From the sequence record SRR31156797_17769: DNA of 37,702 nt, one strand, 5' to 3'. How positions within the stretch are numbered: the stretch's first letter is position 1; every line of letters starts with the position of its first letter. Both the position numbers and the translations under genes were made by a program. Below are positions 19,399 through 28,099 of this stretch, one piece after another. The notes under the pieces were generated by a model. It was not told where the DNA came from. It searched no databases and saw nothing but the letters and a program-made list of their open reading frames with translations.

Positions 19399-20430
19399 TT
19401 ACCCCCGGTGCCTTTTGGAGCGGGTGAATATCCAACAGAAGATCGGTCCGCCGATGAGCGCGGTGAGAACGCCGATGGGAACTTCATGGGGGAGGCCTGT
19501 GCGGGTCAGGGTGTCGGCTGCGAGTAACAGTATAGCTCCGCTTAAGCCTGAGGCAGGCAGAAGCCAACGGTTGTCCGGCCCGATAATCATGCGCATGAGA
19601 TGAGGAATAATTAATCCCACGAAGCCGATGACCCCGGAAACGGAAACACAGACCGCGCTGATCAAGGACGCTGTGACCAGAAGCGTGAGACGAACTTTGC
19701 CCGTATCCACGCCCAGACTTTTGGCTGAGCGAGCCCCCAGACTCATGATGTTGAGGTCGCGAGCGAAAAACAGGCAGACCGCAAAGCCAAACAGGCTGGT
19801 TCCTGCGGTCAGAATAACGTCAGTCCAGGTGCGGGCTACAAAGCTTCCCATGAGCCAGAATACAATGACCGAGACTTTTTCGTCGGCCAGATATTTGATG
19901 CAGCTCAGTCCGGCTGACAGAATAGCGGAAACAATGACACCTGCCAGTATCAGGTTGGTGGGAGACAACTCCCCGTCGCGTCCAGACATGGCGATGACTG
20001 CGAAAAGCGTGGCTGTTGCCCCGGCGAAAGCCATGAGCAGTAGTGTTGTCTGGCCGAAGAAGGACAGGCCAAGCAAGAGACTTAAGGCCGCTCCGAAGGC
20101 CGCACCGGAAGAGACTCCCAATGTGAACGGATCGGCCAATGGGTTAAGGAGTAACCCTTGAAAGACTGTGCCGGCCACGGCAAGGCCAAAGCCAACAGCG
20201 GCGGCAGTGAGGATACGGGGAAGACGTACCTCGAAAATGACGCTTGTTTTGAGTGGGTCAATGGAATCCGCCGCCCCTCGCAGAGCATCCGTCAGTGCGG
20301 TCAGCACTTCTCCCGGCGAGACCGGGATGAAGCCAAGACCTGTGGCAATAATCACCAATGCGGCCAGTGAGGCTGCGAGTAAGGTGAGAGTTGCTCCTTT
20401 GCTGATGGTGGTACGAGAAACGGCGGTCAT
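19399..20430 (-). CDS. FecCD/BtuC family ABC permease
   Basis: RLPR, FQGLLLNPLADPFTLGVSSGA, A.SLGV, GVIGFVGLIIPH, PIGVLTALIGGP. Confidence 0.93.
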   Translation of the reverse strand: MTAVSRTTISKGATLTLLAASLAALVIIATGLGFIPVSPGEVLTALTDALRGAADSIDPLKTSVIFEVRLPRILTAAAVGFGLAVAGTVFQGLLLNPLADPFTLGVSSGAAFGAALSLLLGLSFFGQTTLLLMAFAGATATLFAVIAMSGRDGELSPTNLILAGVIVSAILSAGLSCIKYLADEKVSVIVFWLMGSFVARTWTDVILTAGTSLFGFAVCLFFARDLNIMSLGARSAKSLGVDTGKVRLTLLVTASLISAVCVSVSGVIGFVGLIIPHLMRMIIGPDNRWLLPASGLSGAILLLAADTLTRTGLPHEVPIGVLTALIGGPIFCWIFTRSKRHRG

Positions 20431-20439
20431 GAGATCCCT

Positions 20440-21423
20440 TTAGGGAAGCATGTGAGTTTGGGCCATGGCATCCTTCAGGTGGCGTACATAGATATCAGCC
20501 CATGTGTCGACAGAACCAAGACCTCGCAGGTCGATGGTCACATCAAAGCCTGCCTTGGTGAGCATGACTTTCCATGCATCATCTTCGTCACCGGCCATGT
20601 CGTTGGAAGCGTGGTCGCCTGCAACAATCATGAAGGGCTTGAGAAGAACCTTTTTGGAACCTGAAGCCTTGAGGTTCACCAGCATATCATCAAAAGCAGG
20701 GTAGCCTTCTACGCAGGCCACAAAGATCGGGTGACCATACGCTTTCTGCATTTCACTTTGGAACTGGGCGTAAATGCCGGTGGAGAAAAAGTCGTTGCCG
20801 TGTCCCATGTAGACAAGGGCAGCGTTCATTTTTTTAGCGGCATCGACGTCAGCTTTGAGAGCTTTGGTGGCAGCGGCGATGTCATCAGTATAAGGATACA
20901 CATCTCCGGGCATGCCCAGAGCCGGACGGCCAAGGCGCAAGCTTTTGAAGGGAATCGATTTTGCTTTGAGGGCGCGGATGGAGCGCAGGCCAATCATTGT
21001 TTGGGTCAAGTCGGAGAATTCTTCACCTGCAAAAACATGAAGGGACTGCACCGCAATAGCCTTGTAGCCTTCGTCCTGAAGGTCGGCGATGGTTGCCAGA
21101 GGACCCTTGACGCTGAGGATGTCAGCAGGCACACCAGCATTTTTTTTCTGCCATGCCGTGTCATTTTGGCGTTCATGCCAAATGTCGCGGATAATGCTTG
21201 AGGTGAAGGCTAGTTTGACCGGAACACCGGGGTAGGCCTTTTCAACCTTGTCGCGAATATTCAGGATGGATTTGAGTGCTTCGGGATATGACGTTCCGAA
21301 TGCGGCCAAGACGATAGCGTCTTTGACCGGGCCTTTTTCATGATGTCCGGCCTGCGCCGGGGCCACCATGAGGACCGCGAGAAGACAGGAGAATAGTGCG
21401 ACATTGAGTCTGTGGATAGACAT
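20440..21423 (-). CDS. cbiK: Periplasmic CbiK-type cobaltochelatase (CbiK-P)
   Basis: Sec signal ending AQA; AIVLAAFGTS, AFTSSIIR, QSLHVFAGEEF, VYMGHGN, VEGYP, VAGDHASNDMAG. Confidence 0.9.
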   Translation of the reverse strand: MSIHRLNVALFSCLLAVLMVAPAQAGHHEKGPVKDAIVLAAFGTSYPEALKSILNIRDKVEKAYPGVPVKLAFTSSIIRDIWHERQNDTAWQKKNAGVPADILSVKGPLATIADLQDEGYKAIAVQSLHVFAGEEFSDLTQTMIGLRSIRALKAKSIPFKSLRLGRPALGMPGDVYPYTDDIAAATKALKADVDAAKKMNAALVYMGHGNDFFSTGIYAQFQSEMQKAYGHPIFVACVEGYPAFDDMLVNLKASGSKKVLLKPFMIVAGDHASNDMAGDEDDAWKVMLTKAGFDVTIDLRGLGSVDTWADIYVRHLKDAMAQTHMLP

Positions 21424-21490: not shown

Positions 21491-21555
21491 AGACCGTTTT
21501 ATCCCTTCGTACCTGTAGTGGTAAGCCCTCGTACCACCGAGGCAAAACCTATGGC

Positions 21556-21714
21556 TTTCCAGGCAGGTCTTCCGGCTGGCCCCTTCTGCTTTCGCCTTCC
21601 CAAGGAAGTTCCTCAGTGGCATGAAAGAAAGCAGTCTGGCGGGGCGTCACGGCGGCGGGTCCGCTCCCGATTTACACGGGATTCCCTATGAAGTCCTTTC
21701 GGACACCTGAAAGG
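21556..21714 (-). ncRNA. Cobalamin riboswitch
   Basis: Minus strand: AGGTG..ATAGGGAATCCCGTGTAAATCGGGAGCGGACCCGCCGCCGTGA..GCCACTG..GGGAAGGC..AGCCGGAAGACCTGCC (B12 box); directly upstream of cobalt chelatase and transport genes. Confidence 0.95.
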
Positions 21715-21719
21715 AGTCT

Positions 21720-21747
21720 ACTATGCTTGTAGAGTTGATCGTGTCAA
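21720..21747 (-). promoter_or_regulatory. Putative sigma70 promoter for the riboswitch leader, embedded in the cheA 3' end
   Basis: TTGACA (21747-21742), 16-nt spacer, CATAGT (21725-21720); implied start site is at the aptamer 5' end. Confidence 0.6.
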
Positions 21748-23403
21748 GCTGGCAGTGGCTCCCTGTTCCATACGTTCTTGGAAATGCTGGATCATTTTTT
21801 CCGTGTCGATAACCAGTGCGTCGGATTCACCCATCATGCCGTAACCAAGGATGGGAATATGGAATATTTCTTCCACCGGGACAGTGAAGCCCGTGATGAC
21901 TACCTGCTGCTGTTTAAGCACTTCATCGACTAGGATGGCTGCCTTATATTCGCCTACACGGACGACAATGGCCTGAGCCATTTCTATATTGTTTTGTTCC
22001 GGTGTCAGGTCCAGAAGGTCCGCCAGTCTAAGCAGTGAATGGACTTCACCGCGCACGTCTACAGTTTCACGTCCATCGGGCAGTTCCACCACATCGTTGA
22101 GGCGTGGCATGTAGATTTCCATCACGTCCCGGCTGGGAACGATGAAGGTATCTCCGCCGACCTTGCAGACCAAGGCTTCGACAATACCTTCGTTGGCTGA
22201 ACGATCAAGCGGGATTTCGATGGTAAAGGCCGCTCCCTTGCCGAATTCACTTTCAATTTCAACATCGCCGTCCAGCGTGACCTTGATGGCATTGACGACT
22301 GCGTCCATGCCGACACCGCGCCCGGAGACATCCGTGATTTGTTCGGCAGTGGAGAAGCCACTTTGGAGGACAAACTGGAGGATTTCCCTTTGTTCGTATT
22401 CGGTTTCGGGGTCAGCCAGTCCTTTTTCAAGGGCCTTGGCAAGGATTCTGTCCGGATCAAGTCCTCGACCATCATCCTTGACTTGAATATAAGCGTTATC
22501 GCCTTTGCGCCATGCCGCCAGAGTGACAACGCCGGTTTCTTTTTTGCCTGCGTTTTTACGTCCCTCAGGATCTTCCAGTCCATGGTCTACGGCGTTTCTG
22601 AGCAAGTGGACCAAGGGTTCGTTAAGGCTTTCAACAATGGTTTTGTCCAGAGCCAGTTCGTCACCTTCGACAACAAAGTCGAGTTTTTTGCCGATTTTTT
22701 GGCTCAGGCTTTTGACCAGCCGGTGCATTGGCATGAAAATCTGTTTGAGTGGCACCAGTCGGATGGCATTCACTTCTTGTTGAAGTCTGCTGATGACATT
22801 ATCAAGCTCACGTAAAGAAGAGGCTACCTGATTCATATTGCTCGCACCGCCTTGGGCGATGACAGCGTATGTGACCATGAGCTTACCTACCAGTTCGATC
22901 ACTCGGTCCAGTCTGTCCGTACCGACCCGGATGGATGAGATTGCCTGTGCTGAAGGTTTGGCTTCTGGTTTGGCCTTGTCCGGTTCCGTTTTTTTCTTTT
23001 CCTTGGGCTTTTCGATTTCTTCCGCAGGTTCTGTTTCAGCTGTTGCTGTAGCGGGCTCTTCAAACGCCTTTGCTGCATCTGCTTCGGATTCTTCGACAAC
23101 AGACGTGGATTTTGTTTCGATTTTAGCTAGAGCGTCGGCACTGTTGTCGAGCAGGCCACCTAGAGCGAAAAAGAATTTTTTTTGTGCCTCACAAATACCG
23201 AGCATTGCGGTGATGATGTCTGCGTTGACAGGAGCAATCCCGTCCGAAAGCATATCAAGAATGGCGATGACTCCGGCAGAGGAGAGGCGCATATGCGACA
23301 GGCCGAGTGCATCGACAACCTCTCCGGCTCCCTGGCCGGTGGCGTCTACTTCGAGGATTTGTTTTTCTATGTCCTCGATGCACTGAATAATGCTGTCTTG
23401 CAT
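21721..23403 (-). CDS. cheA: CheA-type histidine kinase (dimerisation, HATPase and CheW domains) lacking a recognisable P1 H-box
   Basis: SIRV...LD....VG, EPLVHLLRNAVDHGLE, DDGRGLD, GFSTAEQITDVSGRGVGMD, C-terminal CheW-like domain. Confidence 0.88.
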   Translation of the reverse strand: MQDSIIQCIEDIEKQILEVDATGQGAGEVVDALGLSHMRLSSAGVIAILDMLSDGIAPVNADIITAMLGICEAQKKFFFALGGLLDNSADALAKIETKSTSVVEESEADAAKAFEEPATATAETEPAEEIEKPKEKKKTEPDKAKPEAKPSAQAISSIRVGTDRLDRVIELVGKLMVTYAVIAQGGASNMNQVASSLRELDNVISRLQQEVNAIRLVPLKQIFMPMHRLVKSLSQKIGKKLDFVVEGDELALDKTIVESLNEPLVHLLRNAVDHGLEDPEGRKNAGKKETGVVTLAAWRKGDNAYIQVKDDGRGLDPDRILAKALEKGLADPETEYEQREILQFVLQSGFSTAEQITDVSGRGVGMDAVVNAIKVTLDGDVEIESEFGKGAAFTIEIPLDRSANEGIVEALVCKVGGDTFIVPSRDVMEIYMPRLNDVVELPDGRETVDVRGEVHSLLRLADLLDLTPEQNNIEMAQAIVVRVGEYKAAILVDEVLKQQQVVITGFTVPVEEIFHIPILGYGMMGESDALVIDTEKMIQHFQERMEQGATASLTRSTLQA

Positions 23404-23413
23404 GAATTTCCCC

Positions 23414-24139
23414 TTATTGAGTCGTGAAATAGGTGTCTTCGTCCGGGTAGACGGCGATGGTCTGGTCGAATCCCCAGGAATATAATGTTACTTTGGCATC
23501 TGGTGTGAGATTGCAGGCGGCGACTTTGAATGTCGTCCCCATACTGGCAACAGCCCCCCAGGCCCCGGAGCCGAAAGTCAGTACTTCGGAGAGGTCAAGC
23601 AGGATGGAGTCACCCGGTTCAACGCCGAGGATCGCTGAAATAATCGGTTTGAAATGTGTATCTTGATGAACGCGTGGATCTTTGACGCGGATGATGGTCA
23701 CAGCGTCGCGAATTTCCACTTCGACGCCTGCTCCCGTGACTTCGGTTTCGGCCATGCCGCTGCTTGAAGCCTCGGTAATGAGGGAGAGAACTTCTTCTTG
23801 TTCTTCTTCATCAAGGTTGTCGTCGCGAAGTTGTTCCAACACTTGAAAAATCATGTTCACGCCACGCGAAAGCAGGGTGACGTTTTCCGAAGAGGACTCC
23901 ACTTCGCCGGACTGAACCTTTTTCAGGAAGTCTTCGATTTTATGGGTGAAGTGAGATGCTTCTTCAAACCCCGCCATGAATCCGGTCACACCTTTAATGG
24001 TATGCAGCGGGCGTGCGAGTATCTCGATGCCTTCACCAAGGTTGGCACCTTCAAGCATCTCAAGCCCTTCCATGACCTGGGGGTAATATTTGTCGTTGAC
24101 CTCGGAGAAGAACTCTTCGATCATAGGATCTTCGCTCAT
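23414..24139 (-). CDS. CheA-P1-like Hpt domain fused to a STAS-like domain
   Basis: FFSE..ARPLHTIKGVTGFM..HKIEDFL (Hpt H-box); C-terminal ILLDLSEVLTFGSGAWG...GFDQTIAVYPDE resembles STAS. Confidence 0.8.
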   Translation of the reverse strand: MSEDPMIEEFFSEVNDKYYPQVMEGLEMLEGANLGEGIEILARPLHTIKGVTGFMAGFEEASHFTHKIEDFLKKVQSGEVESSSENVTLLSRGVNMIFQVLEQLRDDNLDEEEQEEVLSLITEASSSGMAETEVTGAGVEVEIRDAVTIIRVKDPRVHQDTHFKPIISAILGVEPGDSILLDLSEVLTFGSGAWGAVASMGTTFKVAACNLTPDAKVTLYSWGFDQTIAVYPDEDTYFTTQ

Positions 24140-24152
24140 GAGCTATCCTTGG

Positions 24153-24548
24153 CTACTTGTTCAAGAGTCCGAGTTTTTCCAACTCATTATACAATCTTTC
24201 TTTAGCAATAGGCTTGACGATGTAAGCGGAAGCTTCGCCGTCGTAAAAAGTTTTTATGACCGTTTGAGGATCGTCGAGGGCCGTGGTCATTATGACTTTG
24301 ACCTTAGGTTTATAGCCTCTGTCCGTCTCAATAGATCGTATTTTTTGCAGCGCTTCAATTCCATCAACTTCGGGCATCATGATATCCATGAGAATGAGAT
24401 CATAAGGCTGTTTTTCTGCATGACCGATTTTGAAAGCCTCAACTGCTTCTCTTCCATTGACAACAATGTCCACTTCAAAAAGTGTCATCAAAAATGAACG
24501 GAGGACCTTTCGGCTGAGAAATTCATCTTCAACAATAAGTGCGCGCAT
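24153..24548 (-). CDS. Single-domain response regulator (CheY-like)
   Basis: LIVEDE, DLILMDIMMPEVDG, IMTTAL, YIVKP. Confidence 0.92.
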   Translation of the reverse strand: MRALIVEDEFLSRKVLRSFLMTLFEVDIVVNGREAVEAFKIGHAEKQPYDLILMDIMMPEVDGIEALQKIRSIETDRGYKPKVKVIMTTALDDPQTVIKTFYDGEASAYIVKPIAKERLYNELEKLGLLNK

Positions 24549-24735
24549 CACTTTCTCCGGTTATAACCTGATGAAAAAGGGCTTGTTACTCTCTTTTCGA
24601 CCTTAAAACAGAAAAAAGTCAATATGATGATAAAAAATTATCATACGTATTACATACGTGTTTTTTTGTCTTTTGGACACCCTCTCATGAGTTCTTCATA
24701 CTTGCAAATCTGCGTGAGAATCGTTACCAACCCGC

Positions 24736-25326
24736 ATGTCTCGCGAAATAACAGAGAAAAGAAAGCAACGGATTGATCAGGTTCTAGCCAAGCGGCAGAA
24801 GGATCTGACTATGGTAATGGACAATATTTGGGATCCGCATAATGTTTCGGCTGTGCTGAGAAGTTGTGACGCTTTTGGCGTTTTTGGAGTCCATTTGTAC
24901 TATACCACTTCGGAGTGGCCGGATTTGGCCAAGAAAAGTTCGGCATCCGCAAAAAAGTGGATTCAGCGTACACGCCATATTGATGCGGCAAGTATGGTGG
25001 AAGATTTGCGCGGTCAGGGAATGCAAATTCTCAGGACTGGGTTTTCCGAAACGGCAAAGCCTGTTACTGCTTTTGATTTTACTCGTCCCACGGCTGTAAT
25101 CTTGAGCAATGAGCATCGGGGAACTTCTCCTGAACTGGCCGAATTAGTTCAGGACGAGATATACATTCCCATGCACGGTATGGTACAGAGTTTTAATGTT
25201 TCTGTGGCTGCGGCTATTATCTTGTATGAAGCCTCAACGCAGCGGGATCGAGCTGGTATGTATGAAACCTCTTCGTTCCCTGAAGACGAACTCGAAAAAC
25301 TTAAAGCCGAATGGTATACGCGATAG
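24736..25326 (+). CDS. trmH: TrmH/SpoU family tRNA 2'-O-methyltransferase
   Basis: DPHNVSAVLRSCDAFG, SASAKKW, NEHRG, IPMHGMVQSFNVSVAAAIILYEA..QR. Confidence 0.9.
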   Translation: MSREITEKRKQRIDQVLAKRQKDLTMVMDNIWDPHNVSAVLRSCDAFGVFGVHLYYTTSEWPDLAKKSSASAKKWIQRTRHIDAASMVEDLRGQGMQILRTGFSETAKPVTAFDFTRPTAVILSNEHRGTSPELAELVQDEIYIPMHGMVQSFNVSVAAAIILYEASTQRDRAGMYETSSFPEDELEKLKAEWYTR

Positions 25327-25333
25327 GAGTATA

Positions 25334-25948
25334 ATGATGCATGATTTATTGAAGGTCATGAACTCCGGCGGTGTCGTTCTCTATCCCACTGAGACGTTAT
25401 ATGCCGTAGGATGTGATGCAACAAGTCAGGAAGCGTGTGAAAAAGTGGCGACCATCAAAGGTCGTGCAGAAGATAAACCGCTTCCGTTAATTATCGGCGG
25501 CATGGATATGCTCGAATTGGTCACAGAGGAGAGCACGGCTCCATTAATTCACTTGGCGGAAGTTTTTTGGCCAGGCCCATTGTCTATTCTGGTCAAAGCG
25601 TTGCCGGAATTGCCGGAACTGCTATCTGATGATGAAGGATATACCTCAGTTCGATATAGTGGACATCCGTTTGCCGCAGAATTGTCCCGGCGTATGAAGA
25701 AACCGCTTGTTGCCACTAGCGCCAATCTTTCTGACAAGCCCCCAGTGGCTCTTCCTGAAGACATTGATCCGGAATTGCTTGAATTGGTGGACAAAGCGTA
25801 TCTTGATCCACCGTGGCCCCGTGGTAACAAGCCTTCAACGGTTGTCCGCCTGGTTGGTGCTTCTCAGTTGGAAGTCCTGAGGGAAGGTGCTGTGACCGTC
25901 AAGATGCTTTGCGACAAAGGATATTCTGTTTCCGTCAAGACATCATAA
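25334..25948 (+). CDS. tsaC: L-threonylcarbamoyladenylate synthase (TsaC/YrdC, short form)
   Basis: YPTETLYA, KGR..KPL, FWPGPLS, ATSANLS, PSTVV; AGGAG RBS; start 25334 or 25337. Confidence 0.9.
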   Translation: MMHDLLKVMNSGGVVLYPTETLYAVGCDATSQEACEKVATIKGRAEDKPLPLIIGGMDMLELVTEESTAPLIHLAEVFWPGPLSILVKALPELPELLSDDEGYTSVRYSGHPFAAELSRRMKKPLVATSANLSDKPPVALPEDIDPELLELVDKAYLDPPWPRGNKPSTVVRLVGASQLEVLREGAVTVKMLCDKGYSVSVKTS

Positions 25949-25974
25949 TTTTTTAATTTATCATCGTTTAAACT

Positions 25975-26008
25975 GGCTTCTCTCCATTATGGGGAGAAGC
26001 CTTTTTTT
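25975..26008 (+). terminator. Intrinsic terminator after tsaC
   Basis: GGCTTCTCTCCA / TGGGGAGAAGCC stem followed by T7. Confidence 0.85.
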
Positions 26009-26224
26009 GATGAAAATGAATTTGTTGAAACTGTTTTGGATGTTTCTTGGAGGCTTGGGGTTAAAATTTGTACTCGGAAACACGATAAATGGCGTTTCTT
26101 AGAGAACCGGTAAAAAATATTGTACTTACTCAGGCAGAAAAAATAGGAGTGTTAAATAAATTTCATATATTTAACATATTAATATAATTATATTTATTTT
26201 TTATTTTACCTTTATAAATTCGTT

Positions 26225-26240
26225 TGGCACGAGGGTTGCT
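26225..26240 (+). promoter_or_regulatory. Sigma54 (-24/-12) promoter
   Basis: TGGCACGAGGGTTGCT matches TGGCACG-N4-TTGCW with exact GG-N10-GC spacing; preceded by a very AT-rich tract. Confidence 0.85.
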
Positions 26241-26249
26241 ATATTAAAA

Positions 26250-26320
26250 GCATCTTCCTTCTTTTATTTTGCACACGAGAAACACAAGGCTTCACCGGAC
26301 GGTCCGATGAAGCCTTTCTC
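26250..26320 (+). ncRNA. Candidate sigma54-dependent small RNA
   Basis: Starts at the predicted +1; pyrimidine-rich 5' end CATCTTCCTTCTTTT; ends in the hairpin AAGGCTTCAcCGGA-cgg-TCCGaTGAAGCCTT plus TCTC; no credible ORF. Confidence 0.6.
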
Positions 26321-26538
26321 GCGTGGGGTGAGTGAAATATATTTTATCATTAAACACAGATATTTGCGTCTTTAGTGCTCGTCTGGCTTTATCGTTGCAC
26401 ATGGAACCGAAGGTGATACTTTTGTTTTTTCATTGAGAACTGGCAGAGTTAAAAAAGTTGAATTTTGATTCACTGTTTGACTTGGCGGTCCTGATTATGG
26501 AGACTTTATTGAAGTGAACCTGTGAATTGGAGTCAGTC

Positions 26539-27036
26539 ATGGTAAAAATCCGACCGTGTCCTCATTGCGGTGAAGAAATTGAAGTCTATCGAAACCCAAC
26601 CCCCACCGTGGATGTTGTTATTCTCATGTCGTCTGACGAGGGTGATGGTGTTGTTCTCATTGAACGAAAGAATCCTCCTCTTGGCTGGGCATTGCCCGGA
26701 GGGTTTGTGGACTATGGTGAGTCCTGTGAGGATGCGGCTGTTCGCGAGATGAAAGAGGAAACCGGGCTGGACGTGGAATTGGTAGGGCTACTTGGTGTTT
26801 ATTCCGATCCAAAGCGTGATCCGCGACAACATACCATGAGTGTAGTGTACATCGGTGTACCAAAAGATCCGTCGGCTTTGGTAGCAGGTGATGACGCGGC
26901 CAAGGCGGAGGTCTTTTTATTGGGAAAATGGCCCGAGTTGACCTTCGATCATGGCAAGATTTTGAACGACTTCATGACATATTTTATTGAGAATGGTGGA
27001 AAGAGGCGTGTTGACGGCTTTCCGACTCAGGCGTAG
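26539..27036 (+). CDS. NUDIX hydrolase (ADP-ribose pyrophosphatase-like) with N-terminal CxxC
   Basis: CPHCG..YRNP; Nudix box [36 protein letters not shown]. Confidence 0.9.
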
Positions 27037-27088
27037 TTCTCACGCGGATGTTTCATAACCATTTCAAACGAGCTGAATAAATAGTATC

Positions 27089-28099
27089 ATGCGTACATTG
27101 TGTATCACTCTTGGTGACCCGTGCGGTCTCGGTCCGGAACTTGTTGTCCGACATTTTGTTGATGCTCCTGCGGTTGAAGATCGATTCCTCCTGCTTGGAC
27201 CTTGTTCGGCAATGGACAGAGAGCTTGAAAGAATTGGTGAACCCCGTTTTTTTGCTGTGCTAGATGATCCTGAGCAGATCAGTAATAAAGGTGCAGGAGT
27301 GTATCTTTTTGAACCTGCTGGACTCGTCGGGTTGGAGTATCCTTTGGGAGAGGCTTGCACTGAAGGAGGTAAGGCAGCCGGGGTCAGTCTGGATATGGCG
27401 GTGGAGGTCCTCAAGTCAGGACTGGCTGACGGGTTGCTTACTTGTCCGTTGAACAAGGCGATGCTTCAGTCTGCGGGATTCGATTTCCCGGGGCACACAG
27501 AATTTCTGGCCGAAAAACTCGGCGTGGGTGCTGATCAGGTCTGCATGCATTTGTGTGGGCATGACCCGGACGATGATGCTCCCAAGCTTCGTGTGAGTTT
27601 GGCGACCACTCATCCTCGGCTCCGCGATGTGCCGGCCCTTGTCACCGAAGAACGGTTGCTGCGCTGTTTGCGACTCACCGCTGATTTCGTGCATACGTTG
27701 GGGCTTGAAGGTCCTGTTGGTGTGTGTGGTTTGAATCCGCATGCCGGTGAATCTGGTCGAATAGGAGATGAGGAAATCAAGACGATTATTCCGGCTCTTG
27801 AAACAGCGCGTAATGAAGGCTTGAATGTGGTCGGGCCTATTCCGGGTGATACCGTCTTCTATTTTGCGGCCAAGGGTGAGTATTCGGCTGTACTTGCAAT
27901 GTATCATGATCAGGGTTTGGCCCCGCTTAAACTTTTGCATTTCAGTCAGGCGGTGAATGTAACTCTTGGGTTGCCGTATCCTCGCACTTCGCCAGACCAT
28001 GGTACGGGATATGATATTGTGGGTACTGGTGAGGCTTCCATACAGAGTTTTCGTGCTGCCTTGGATATGGTGCAGCGGCTTGTCGAGGCAAAGAGGTAG
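27089..28099 (+). CDS. pdxA: 4-hydroxythreonine-4-phosphate dehydrogenase
   Basis: LGDPCGLGPE, PGHTEFLA, TTH, GLNPHAGE, AMYHDQGL, RTSPDHGT. Confidence 0.93.
   Translation: MRTLCITLGDPCGLGPELVVRHFVDAPAVEDRFLLLGPCSAMDRELERIGEPRFFAVLDDPEQISNKGAGVYLFEPAGLVGLEYPLGEACTEGGKAAGVSLDMAVEVLKSGLADGLLTCPLNKAMLQSAGFDFPGHTEFLAEKLGVGADQVCMHLCGHDPDDDAPKLRVSLATTHPRLRDVPALVTEERLLRCLRLTADFVHTLGLEGPVGVCGLNPHAGESGRIGDEEIKTIIPALETARNEGLNVVGPIPGDTVFYFAAKGEYSAVLAMYHDQGLAPLKLLHFSQAVNVTLGLPYPRTSPDHGTGYDIVGTGEASIQSFRAALDMVQRLVEAKR

Follow-up and report, generated by a model that had tools for sequence, protein, structure and literature searches.

A candidate sigma54-dependent small RNA gene with an anti-Shine-Dalgarno-like 5' end belongs to a multi-copy family in Desulfovibrionaceae

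Sigma54 promoters of the enhancer type carry activator sites about 100 bp or more upstream that are bound by an enhancer-binding protein (EBP), and a DNA-bending site for IHF between enhancer and promoter is common, although not obligatory. Among the small RNAs (sRNAs) transcribed from such promoters, Qrr1-5 of Vibrio depend on sigma54 and on LuxO, an activator of REC-AAA+-HTH type, require Hfq and fold into four stem-loops, whereas in the GlmY/GlmZ pair GlmY acts by protein sequestration and GlmZ activates glmS. GlmY and GlmZ of Enterobacteriaceae are reported to be under the control of sigma54, GlrR/QseF and IHF (PMC3045617). For Desulfovibrio vulgaris Hildenborough, main-text passages report four predicted sigma54-dependent non-coding RNAs (ncRNAs) with DVU0653, DVU0679, DVU1419 and DVU2359 as activators, the authors remarking that ncRNA regulators tend to occur in free-living species (PMC3333781, PMC4641369), and a 2019 preprint presents itself, in the passage concerned, as the first work on Desulfovibrio in which a definitive sRNA function is suggested (10.1101/803072). 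Post-transcriptional control is almost unexplored in sulfate-reducing bacteria. Here we analysed a stretch of 37,702 nucleotides from sequence record SRR31156797_17769 (the whole stretch is called the window), in which the 590-nt spacer between a Sua5/YciO/YrdC (tsaC-type) gene and a NUDIX hydrolase gene holds a sigma54-type promoter followed by a candidate sRNA gene. An earlier reading of this DNA, made from its letters only (the sequence-only reading), had proposed that an orphan sigma54 promoter drives there an RNA of about 70 nt with a seed directed against Shine-Dalgarno (SD) sequences.

Our analysis indicates that positions 26060-26325 probably form a complete and independently regulated sRNA gene, whose predicted transcript of about 72-77 nt belongs to a multi-copy family of the Desulfovibrionaceae. 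For this reading as a whole, with the proposed mechanism in trans included, we estimate a probability of about 0.7. The gene would consist of the following elements:

26060-26073, no strand assigned: distal upstream activator-like site GTTAAAATTTGTAC, centred at about -183, a candidate EBP site
26110-26125, no strand assigned: proximal upstream activator-like site GTAAAAAATATTGTAC, an imperfect GTACAA-N4-TTGTAC palindrome centred at about -132, likewise a candidate
26172-26184, no strand assigned: IHF-like site TAACATATTAATA at about -72, between the enhancer-like sites and the promoter, with one mismatch to YAANNNNTTGATW
26225-26240, plus strand: sigma54 -24/-12 promoter TGGCACGAGGGTTGCT, predicted +1 at 26249-26251
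26250-26271, plus strand: 5' segment GCAUCUUCCUUCUUUUAUUUUG, unpaired in the predicted fold, with a CUUCCUU core at 26254-26260, a U-rich tract and then an invariant UUUGCA
26272-26325, plus strand: long imperfect stem-loop of the predicted fold, with the loop CGG and no U run behind it; conservation stops at about 26321

The promoter, which the sequence-only reading had described as near-consensus, turned out to be an exact -24/-12 element, with GG at -24 and GC at -12. It is the single exact match to TGGCAC-N5-TTGCW on both strands of the 37.7-kb window; shuffled sequences gave 0.07 such matches on average, and 7 of 100 shuffles held at least one.

The sequence upstream of this element was compared among copies of the unit, which fall into type A, to which the window copy belongs, and a paralogous type B. 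Both types have two palindrome-like sites of the form GT-W-N-AAA...TTGTAC on their 5' side. The proximal site keeps a constant distance in 31 of the 33 Pseudodesulfovibrio copies scanned (position weight matrix (PWM) scores of 13.8-26.2 bits), the best matches upstream of 20 further copies lie at -135 to -139 and/or -175 to -179, and where units are arranged in tandem every one of them has upstream sites of its own. A site with at most one mismatch to YAANNNNTTGATW, which we take to be the IHF consensus, is present in 22 of 34 copies (6 of them exact) compared to 11.8% of shuffles (0.4% exact), and its offset from the start of the covariance model presented below is mostly constant, at -76. 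The nearest genome, G001, in which 74% of the words sampled from the window recur and which carries an identical copy of the RNA, has one Sigma54_DBD match (rpoN) and about 32 strong Sigma54_activat matches, taken as EBP genes. The layout is that of a textbook EBP/IHF/sigma54 promoter, to which the corresponding proteins would be expected to bind, and it makes dependence of the sRNA gene on sigma54 very likely.

The predicted RNA folds with a minimum free energy (MFE) of -28.6 kcal/mol (z = -5.2), a stability reached by none of 200 shuffles, and its first 22 nt are unpaired in both the MFE and the centroid folds. The sequence-only reading had placed a 13-bp interrupted hairpin at 26286-26316. 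This hairpin is present, with 9 + 4 bp, but it is the inner part of a longer helix: an outer helix CGAGAA/UUCUCG (26276-26281 with 26316-26321) encloses the inner (26287-26294/26308-26315) and apical (26296-26299/26303-26306) helices. Over 22 type A sequences, pairing is intact in 98.0% of 396 cells, a level attained by none of 500 shuffles and to be compared with at most 52.8% in slid registers; within this type three pairs show double changes and the outer helix does not vary. When 47 distinct sense sequences of many genera were taken together, pairing reached 97.9% of the cells and double changes were seen in 17 of the 18 pairs, in a count from which 12 antisense or truncated rows had been dropped and whose alignment, being fitted to the model, leans towards the model structure. 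The closing C-G pair of the outer helix is replaced by U-A in the type B copy of G001 and in locus L148. These compensatory changes support the long hairpin as an RNA structure. The strand is also apparent, as G-U pairs, numerous on the sense strand, would read A-C on the opposite one, and the window copy scores 94.1 bits in the sense direction versus 36.9 bits for its antisense echo.

The sequence-only reading had further assigned an anti-SD seed to the 5' end. The 16S rRNA of G001 ends in GGAUCACCUCCUUU, so the CUUCCUU core differs at one base from the anti-SD sequence CCUCCUU; it could pair perfectly with AAGGAAG, and with AAGGAGG through one G-U pair. CUUCC was found in nearly all members inspected, diverged ones included, one distant member has CCUCCUUU exactly, and the 5' segment is kept across genera as well as between paralogues with unlike hairpins. 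As that reading had also stated, no credible coding sequence accompanies the RNA: the longest open reading frame (ORF) between promoter and hairpin is at most 36 aa and none is conserved. The search of Rfam that it had recommended yielded no family for the RNA in the spacer. A cobalamin riboswitch is the sole family above its gathering score in the window, and between 25900 and 26600 no sRNA family was found at E < 0.2, with no Qrr among the listed matches.

A blastn search with 26150-26560 against 41 relatives gave matches in 18 of the 25 Pseudodesulfovibrio genomes, most of them confined to about 26222-26321, with diverging flanks. A 98.3%-identical relative, present in public contigs of one sample, differs at 33 positions over 25300-27200, 21 of which fall in the 590-nt spacer; the block 26216-26340, the two upstream sites and the IHF-like site are all free of differences. 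By hand arithmetic, evenly spread differences would leave the 125-nt block untouched with a probability of about 0.007. As a separate observation, other contigs of the same sample (runs X1-X4) match just 26267-26321 or 26248-26321, and their loose ends, which read like promoter and seed units, seem to come from more carriers of the family in that sample.

A scan of a sequence collection with an RNA-only pattern returned 14 matches, of which eight are titled Pseudodesulfovibrio, one 'Desulfovibrio caledoniensis' and one is a Desulfovibrionaceae metagenome-assembled genome; the other four come from unrelated taxa, about the number expected by chance according to a hand estimate. TGGCAC-N5-TTGC stands at a constant distance upstream of all ten Desulfovibrionaceae matches and of none of the four unrelated ones. 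A covariance model, R1, was then built from 22 of 23 type A sequences (L016 was omitted owing to a one-base shift in the MAFFT alignment). It begins 3 nt before the predicted +1 and so excludes the -24/-12 elements, and the copies had been gathered by promoter-blind tools in order to avoid circularity. R1 matched all 41 Pseudodesulfovibrio genomes sampled, with 1-5 matches each including some antisense echoes, and 25 of 151 Desulfovibrionaceae genomes, in 15 of 72 genera. In a 151-genome draw from the order, nine genomes matched, two of them in other families, both with a -24/-12 element. This element lies directly upstream in 25 of 27 R1 matches inspected, the two exceptions (L067 and L074) looking like false positives, and in 20 of 20 further matches in the genus, including those in the seven genomes without a blastn match. 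Since diverged units were also found 5' of NUDIX orthologues in genomes that escaped R1, the family is wider than the R1 count. The scan of relatives for promoter, seed and hairpin that the sequence-only reading had called for thus brought out a conserved unit, its paralogues and its tsaC-NUDIX synteny.

The type B paralogue has in common with type A the upstream sites, a TGGCACG-N4-NTGC promoter, a 5' end of AGCAUCUUCCUUUU(A)UUUGCAC and a closing UUUCUCG. It departs from type A in the inner hairpin (GCCUCC-loop-GGAGGC), and it ends in a U run; the promoter element is the same, at a fixed distance, in 11 of 11 copies. In G001, the type B copy (C1:2777259-2777324, plus strand, equal to L044:10260-10325) comes after an aminotransferase gene, and 29 nt past it lies a convergent SBP_bac_3 gene, verified with Pfam, followed by ilvD. 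The same neighbourhood occurs in three other genomes (G022, G007 and G011). In six genomes (G022, G083, G137, G170, G115 and G159), two or three complete units form arrays, each unit having its own promoter and a U-tailed terminator.

Several observations weigh against the reading of this locus as an independent, trans-acting sRNA gene; they concern its expression, its 3' end and downstream neighbour, its targets and its activator. The public runs holding the stretch are four, from one sample whose kind is unknown; they are genomic-contig-like and none is recorded as RNA. A terminator scan calls the hairpin of the window on the minus strand only, and when one mismatch is permitted the window holds two sigma54-like motifs versus 1.92 expected, which is the chance level. 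These three results would fit a chance motif next to a palindrome, such as a bidirectional terminator or an intergenic repeat, that is never transcribed. However, promoter, spacing, upstream sites, IHF-like site, seed and helix are conserved together in dozens of species and in paralogues, the G-U pairs and model scores favour the plus strand, and no minus-strand gene converges on the hairpin, as NUDIX and pdxA are both on the plus strand. We hold that explanation to be most improbable, and there is little doubt in our view that the locus is a real RNA gene.

The 3' end of the window copy is less clear. The sequence-only reading had seen a short U/C tail behind the hairpin; the text of the tail (UCUCGCGUGG) is as described, but it has no U run and does not satisfy the rule for a Rho-independent terminator on the plus strand. 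The conserved unit and its compensatory changes strongly support the proposed sRNA; the clean 3' end expected of it is wanting in the window copy. More generally, the copies of the genus that lie upstream of NUDIX, that of the window included, have CGUGGG or UAUGG after the hairpin, whereas in type B, as in most other genera, the stem leads directly into a U run. The neighbourhood of the window copy comprises the following features:

25975-26001, plus strand: intrinsic terminator of the tsaC-type gene, called by the terminator scan, a 12-bp stem followed by TTTTTTT
26539-27036, plus strand: NUDIX hydrolase gene (Pfam), co-directional neighbour 3' of the sRNA unit and possible target of read-through
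27089-28099, plus strand: pdxA, next after the NUDIX gene

The spacer runs from the tsaC-type stop at 25948 to the NUDIX ATG at 26539. Its terminator, correctly recognised by the sequence-only reading as an insulator, is placed to shield the sRNA unit from transcription upstream, and its strength implies that NUDIX needs some promoter within the spacer. NUDIX begins about 215 nt downstream of the unit and is read in the same direction, a synteny that is kept across genera: this arrangement was seen at 14 of the 23 distinct type A loci of Pseudodesulfovibrio and at 12 of 20 loci of other genera, with tsaC often on the opposite side. A simple sigma70 scan called no promoter between hairpin and NUDIX. 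Together with the missing U run, these data leave room for a cis-acting leader, in which the sigma54 promoter would drive a NUDIX-pdxA-HAD operon and the RNA would be its 5' leader, as an attenuator or processing element; a single RNA might also do both jobs. Yet the promoter and RNA unit also occurs away from NUDIX (at 9 of the 23 type A loci of Pseudodesulfovibrio and 8 of the 20 loci of other genera), the gene downstream of the type B copy is convergent with it, and whole units with their own promoter and U-tailed terminator are repeated in arrays upstream of a single NUDIX gene. Moreover, the NUDIX-proximal copies of other genera do terminate in U runs, and the distance of about 210 nt from hairpin to NUDIX is not conserved. 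Since many copies lie elsewhere, type B has a convergent neighbour and whole units recur in tandem, the unit is best seen as an RNA gene in its own right, and a role as leader is unlikely. Partial read-through from the window copy into NUDIX-pdxA is possible, given the lack of a U run, the co-directional synteny and the absence of a called sigma70 promoter. A crude call of the orientation of downstream genes was discarded, since spurious antisense ORFs in GC-rich DNA contradicted tblastn.

Other features of the surroundings are recorded here for themselves. Sigma70-like hexamers (TTAACA-18-TATTTT, 9/12) are found at 26171-26200 (plus strand) in the AT-rich part of the spacer just 5' of the sigma54 promoter; the region holds three sigma70-like sites, not above the 2.0 +/- 1.5 of shuffles. 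The longest ORF of tsaC (25196-25948, plus strand, start 25196) overlaps a SpoU/TrmH methyltransferase gene (24736-25326, plus strand) by about 130 nt. Its Pfam domain suits a start at 25334, 8 nt past the trmH stop, and trmH and tsaC probably form a tight operon. On the minus strand, the cobalamin riboswitch (21545-21725; 98.8 bits versus a gathering score of 31.5) is directly 5' of genes for a CbiK cobalt chelatase (20440-21423) and a FecCD-type permease (19399-20430), and a split CheA-like module occupies 21721-24551, with a CheY-like receiver (24153-24551), an Hpt-only protein (23414-24139) and a CheA core (21721-23403) that has dimerisation, HATPase and CheW domains and no Hpt match in Pfam. 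CheY and Hpt genes adjoin trmH-tsaC in two other species too (L021 and L032).

With respect to targets, duplex energies computed with RNAduplex between the seed and the first-start regions of 38-39 window genes averaged -8.7 kcal/mol, slightly better than the -7.5 kcal/mol of intragenic regions. On best-start regions, shuffled seeds gave -9.4 versus -10.7 kcal/mol; the signal is weak and biased by the choice of starts. Complements of a 13-nt seed with at most one mismatch were not clearly above the control count in five genomes and were mostly intragenic. Exact 13-nt complements were the sRNA genes themselves and one other site (in G022); the non-self sites inspected, 16 of 17 in G001 and the one in G022, lie mostly inside open frames. 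No specific mRNA target emerged from the window duplex energies or from the five-genome complement search. Of the anti-SD seed of the sequence-only reading, the CUUCCUU core is conserved and predicted to be unpaired, but the search for the ribosome-binding sites (RBSs) it was supposed to block found none. G001, a complete genome, has no Pfam match to Hfq, which the same search detected in five reference genomes used as control, and no ProQ; CsrA is present.

The apical part of the hairpin (26297-26305) keeps the sequence GG-N-Y-GGUCC across genera (loci L054-L073) and not its pairing alone; type B is devoid of it. A plain terminator would not need such a conserved loop, which hints at a further function, perhaps that of a second seed or of a protein-binding site. 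Protein binding would indeed account for a part of these data: the RNA might be a decoy whose CU tract, UUUUGCA or apical loop titrates ribosomal protein S1, CsrA or another protein, in keeping with the conservation of the apical motif and of UUUUGCA beyond pairing, with the presence of CsrA in a host devoid of Hfq and ProQ, and with the lack of mRNA targets in the searches above. CsrA decoys, however, carry many GGA sites, and GGA occurs at most once per RNA here and is not kept in all genera; the CsrA version was rejected on this ground. Furthermore, type B has kept the seed without the apical motif, and base-pairing sRNAs usually have just this layout, an unpaired pyrimidine seed at the 5' terminus with a terminator hairpin behind it. 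Titration of a protein is therefore a poor candidate for the role of the RNA, and for base-pairing at RBSs, the part of our preferred reading on which these searches bear most, we consider the chances to be about even.

Regarding the activator, no EBP-like ORF was found within 1.5 kb of about 60 copies, and a PWM scan of about 6 kb around the 32 EBP genes of G001 gave no upstream-site motif of 15 bits or more. In G001, G022 and G007, counts of a strict upstream-site pattern were at the level of the reversed-pattern control, sRNA loci excepted. No Hpt gene lies beside an EBP gene, and the genes driven by the other sigma54 promoters in the vicinity of EBP genes are ordinary ones. When 29 of the 32 EBPs of G001 (three were missed by a motif filter) were compared by reciprocal best hits with one sRNA-positive and two sRNA-negative genomes, an orphan REC-AAA+-HTH protein was singled out (L081:1015-2490; G001:C1:3358311-3359783). 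It is present in 24 of 25 model-positive genomes, yet also in 83 of 126 model-negative ones. Of the genomes that encode this protein, 9 of 15 have units resembling the sRNA 5' of NUDIX (one of these cases is weak), versus 1 of 13 genomes that lack it, in a count that relies on an arbitrary cut-off of E <= 1e-120 and on related genomes, leaves out G107 (no NUDIX match) and ignores copies that may lie elsewhere. This protein is a candidate activator, as a weak lead only.

Taken together, these data are compatible with the following scheme for the sRNA gene. An EBP would bind the palindromic sites at about -183 and -132, the IHF-like site at about -72 would allow bending of the DNA, and sigma54-RNA polymerase at TGGCAC-N5-TTGCT would initiate near 26250. 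The resulting RNA would expose some 22 unpaired nucleotides at its 5' end, with their CUUCCUU core one base from the anti-SD, and the long hairpin would stabilise it and, in most family members, terminate it. Most likely, the 5' end would pair in trans with ribosome-binding regions of GGAAG/GGAGG type and lower their translation, and this pairing would proceed without Hfq or ProQ, both absent from the nearest genome. Type A copies such as that of the window and type B copies such as that near ilvD in G001 would answer the same activator, as the Qrr sRNAs answer LuxO. A bolder version is possible, although the odds are against it: a LuxO/Qrr-like circuit operating without Hfq in Desulfovibrionaceae, in which the orphan REC-AAA+-HTH protein is the activator and redundant sRNAs mimic the anti-SD and compete with ribosomes at GGAAG/GGAGG starts. 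If so, that activator would control essentially just a battery of single, paralogous and tandem sRNAs, resetting the translation of a regulon on a signal, and the ancient tsaC-sRNA-NUDIX linkage and the conserved apical loop would mark a second function or partner. Apart from this, the covariance model makes it possible to annotate at once a gene overlooked by protein-gene callers and by Rfam, the defined cis-regulatory module gives a handle for finding the activator and its signal, and seed-driven regulation can be studied with this family in a lineage devoid of Hfq and ProQ.

Comparison with Qrr1-5, already drawn by the sequence-only reading, is apt as an analogy. In both cases several paralogous short RNAs, sigma54-driven in Vibrio and predicted to be so here, share a single-stranded seed, differ elsewhere and form orphan intergenic units, and the fact that the upstream-site pattern stands out at the sRNA genes alone in G001, G022 and G007 recalls the small regulon of LuxO; the paralogues described here would be under one common activator. 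By contrast, the Rfam Qrr family is unmatched and Hfq is absent from G001, the present RNA is shorter, with one long hairpin and an anti-SD-like CU tract at its extreme 5' end, its GTACAA-N4-TTGTAC-like sites are unlike the LuxO site, and the family has no known link to quorum sensing. RsaE/RoxS of Firmicutes and RepG of Helicobacter resemble it in exposing a pyrimidine-rich motif directed against SD-like sequences in hosts without Hfq. Their seeds, however, are C-rich (UCCC) and lie in hairpin loops, whereas the present one is linear, 5'-terminal and U-rich (CUUCCUU), and they are transcribed from another type of promoter.

GlmY and GlmZ are reported to have the same combination of activator-site repeats, IHF sites and a -24/-12 promoter, and are two paralogous sRNAs under one activator. 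They are unrelated to the present RNA in sequence and structure (no Rfam match), and its seed looks like that of a repressor pairing with RBSs. The sigma54-dependent ncRNAs of D. vulgaris, as presented in the main-text passages on them, come from the same bacterial family and are the same kind of object. Three of the four adjoin their activator gene, unlike any of the roughly 60 copies studied here, but the 'ncRNA upstream of DVU3282' of the DVU1419 regulon lies away from its activator, as the present copies do. It could belong to the same family, judging from a likeness of description and not of sequence, and the family may then explain one orphan sigma54 ncRNA promoter reported in D. vulgaris. 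Those main-text passages make no mention of a multi-copy or tandem organisation, of tsaC-NUDIX synteny, or of an anti-SD-like seed or structure, and the literature on sigma54-dependent sRNAs of Desulfovibrio and Pseudodesulfovibrio, on DVU3282 and on neighbouring locus tags returned no description of the present family. Qrr, GlmY/GlmZ and other sigma54-dependent sRNAs are its closest functional analogues and none of them is a relative; the family, which is not in Rfam, adds a member to the known class of sigma54-dependent ncRNAs.

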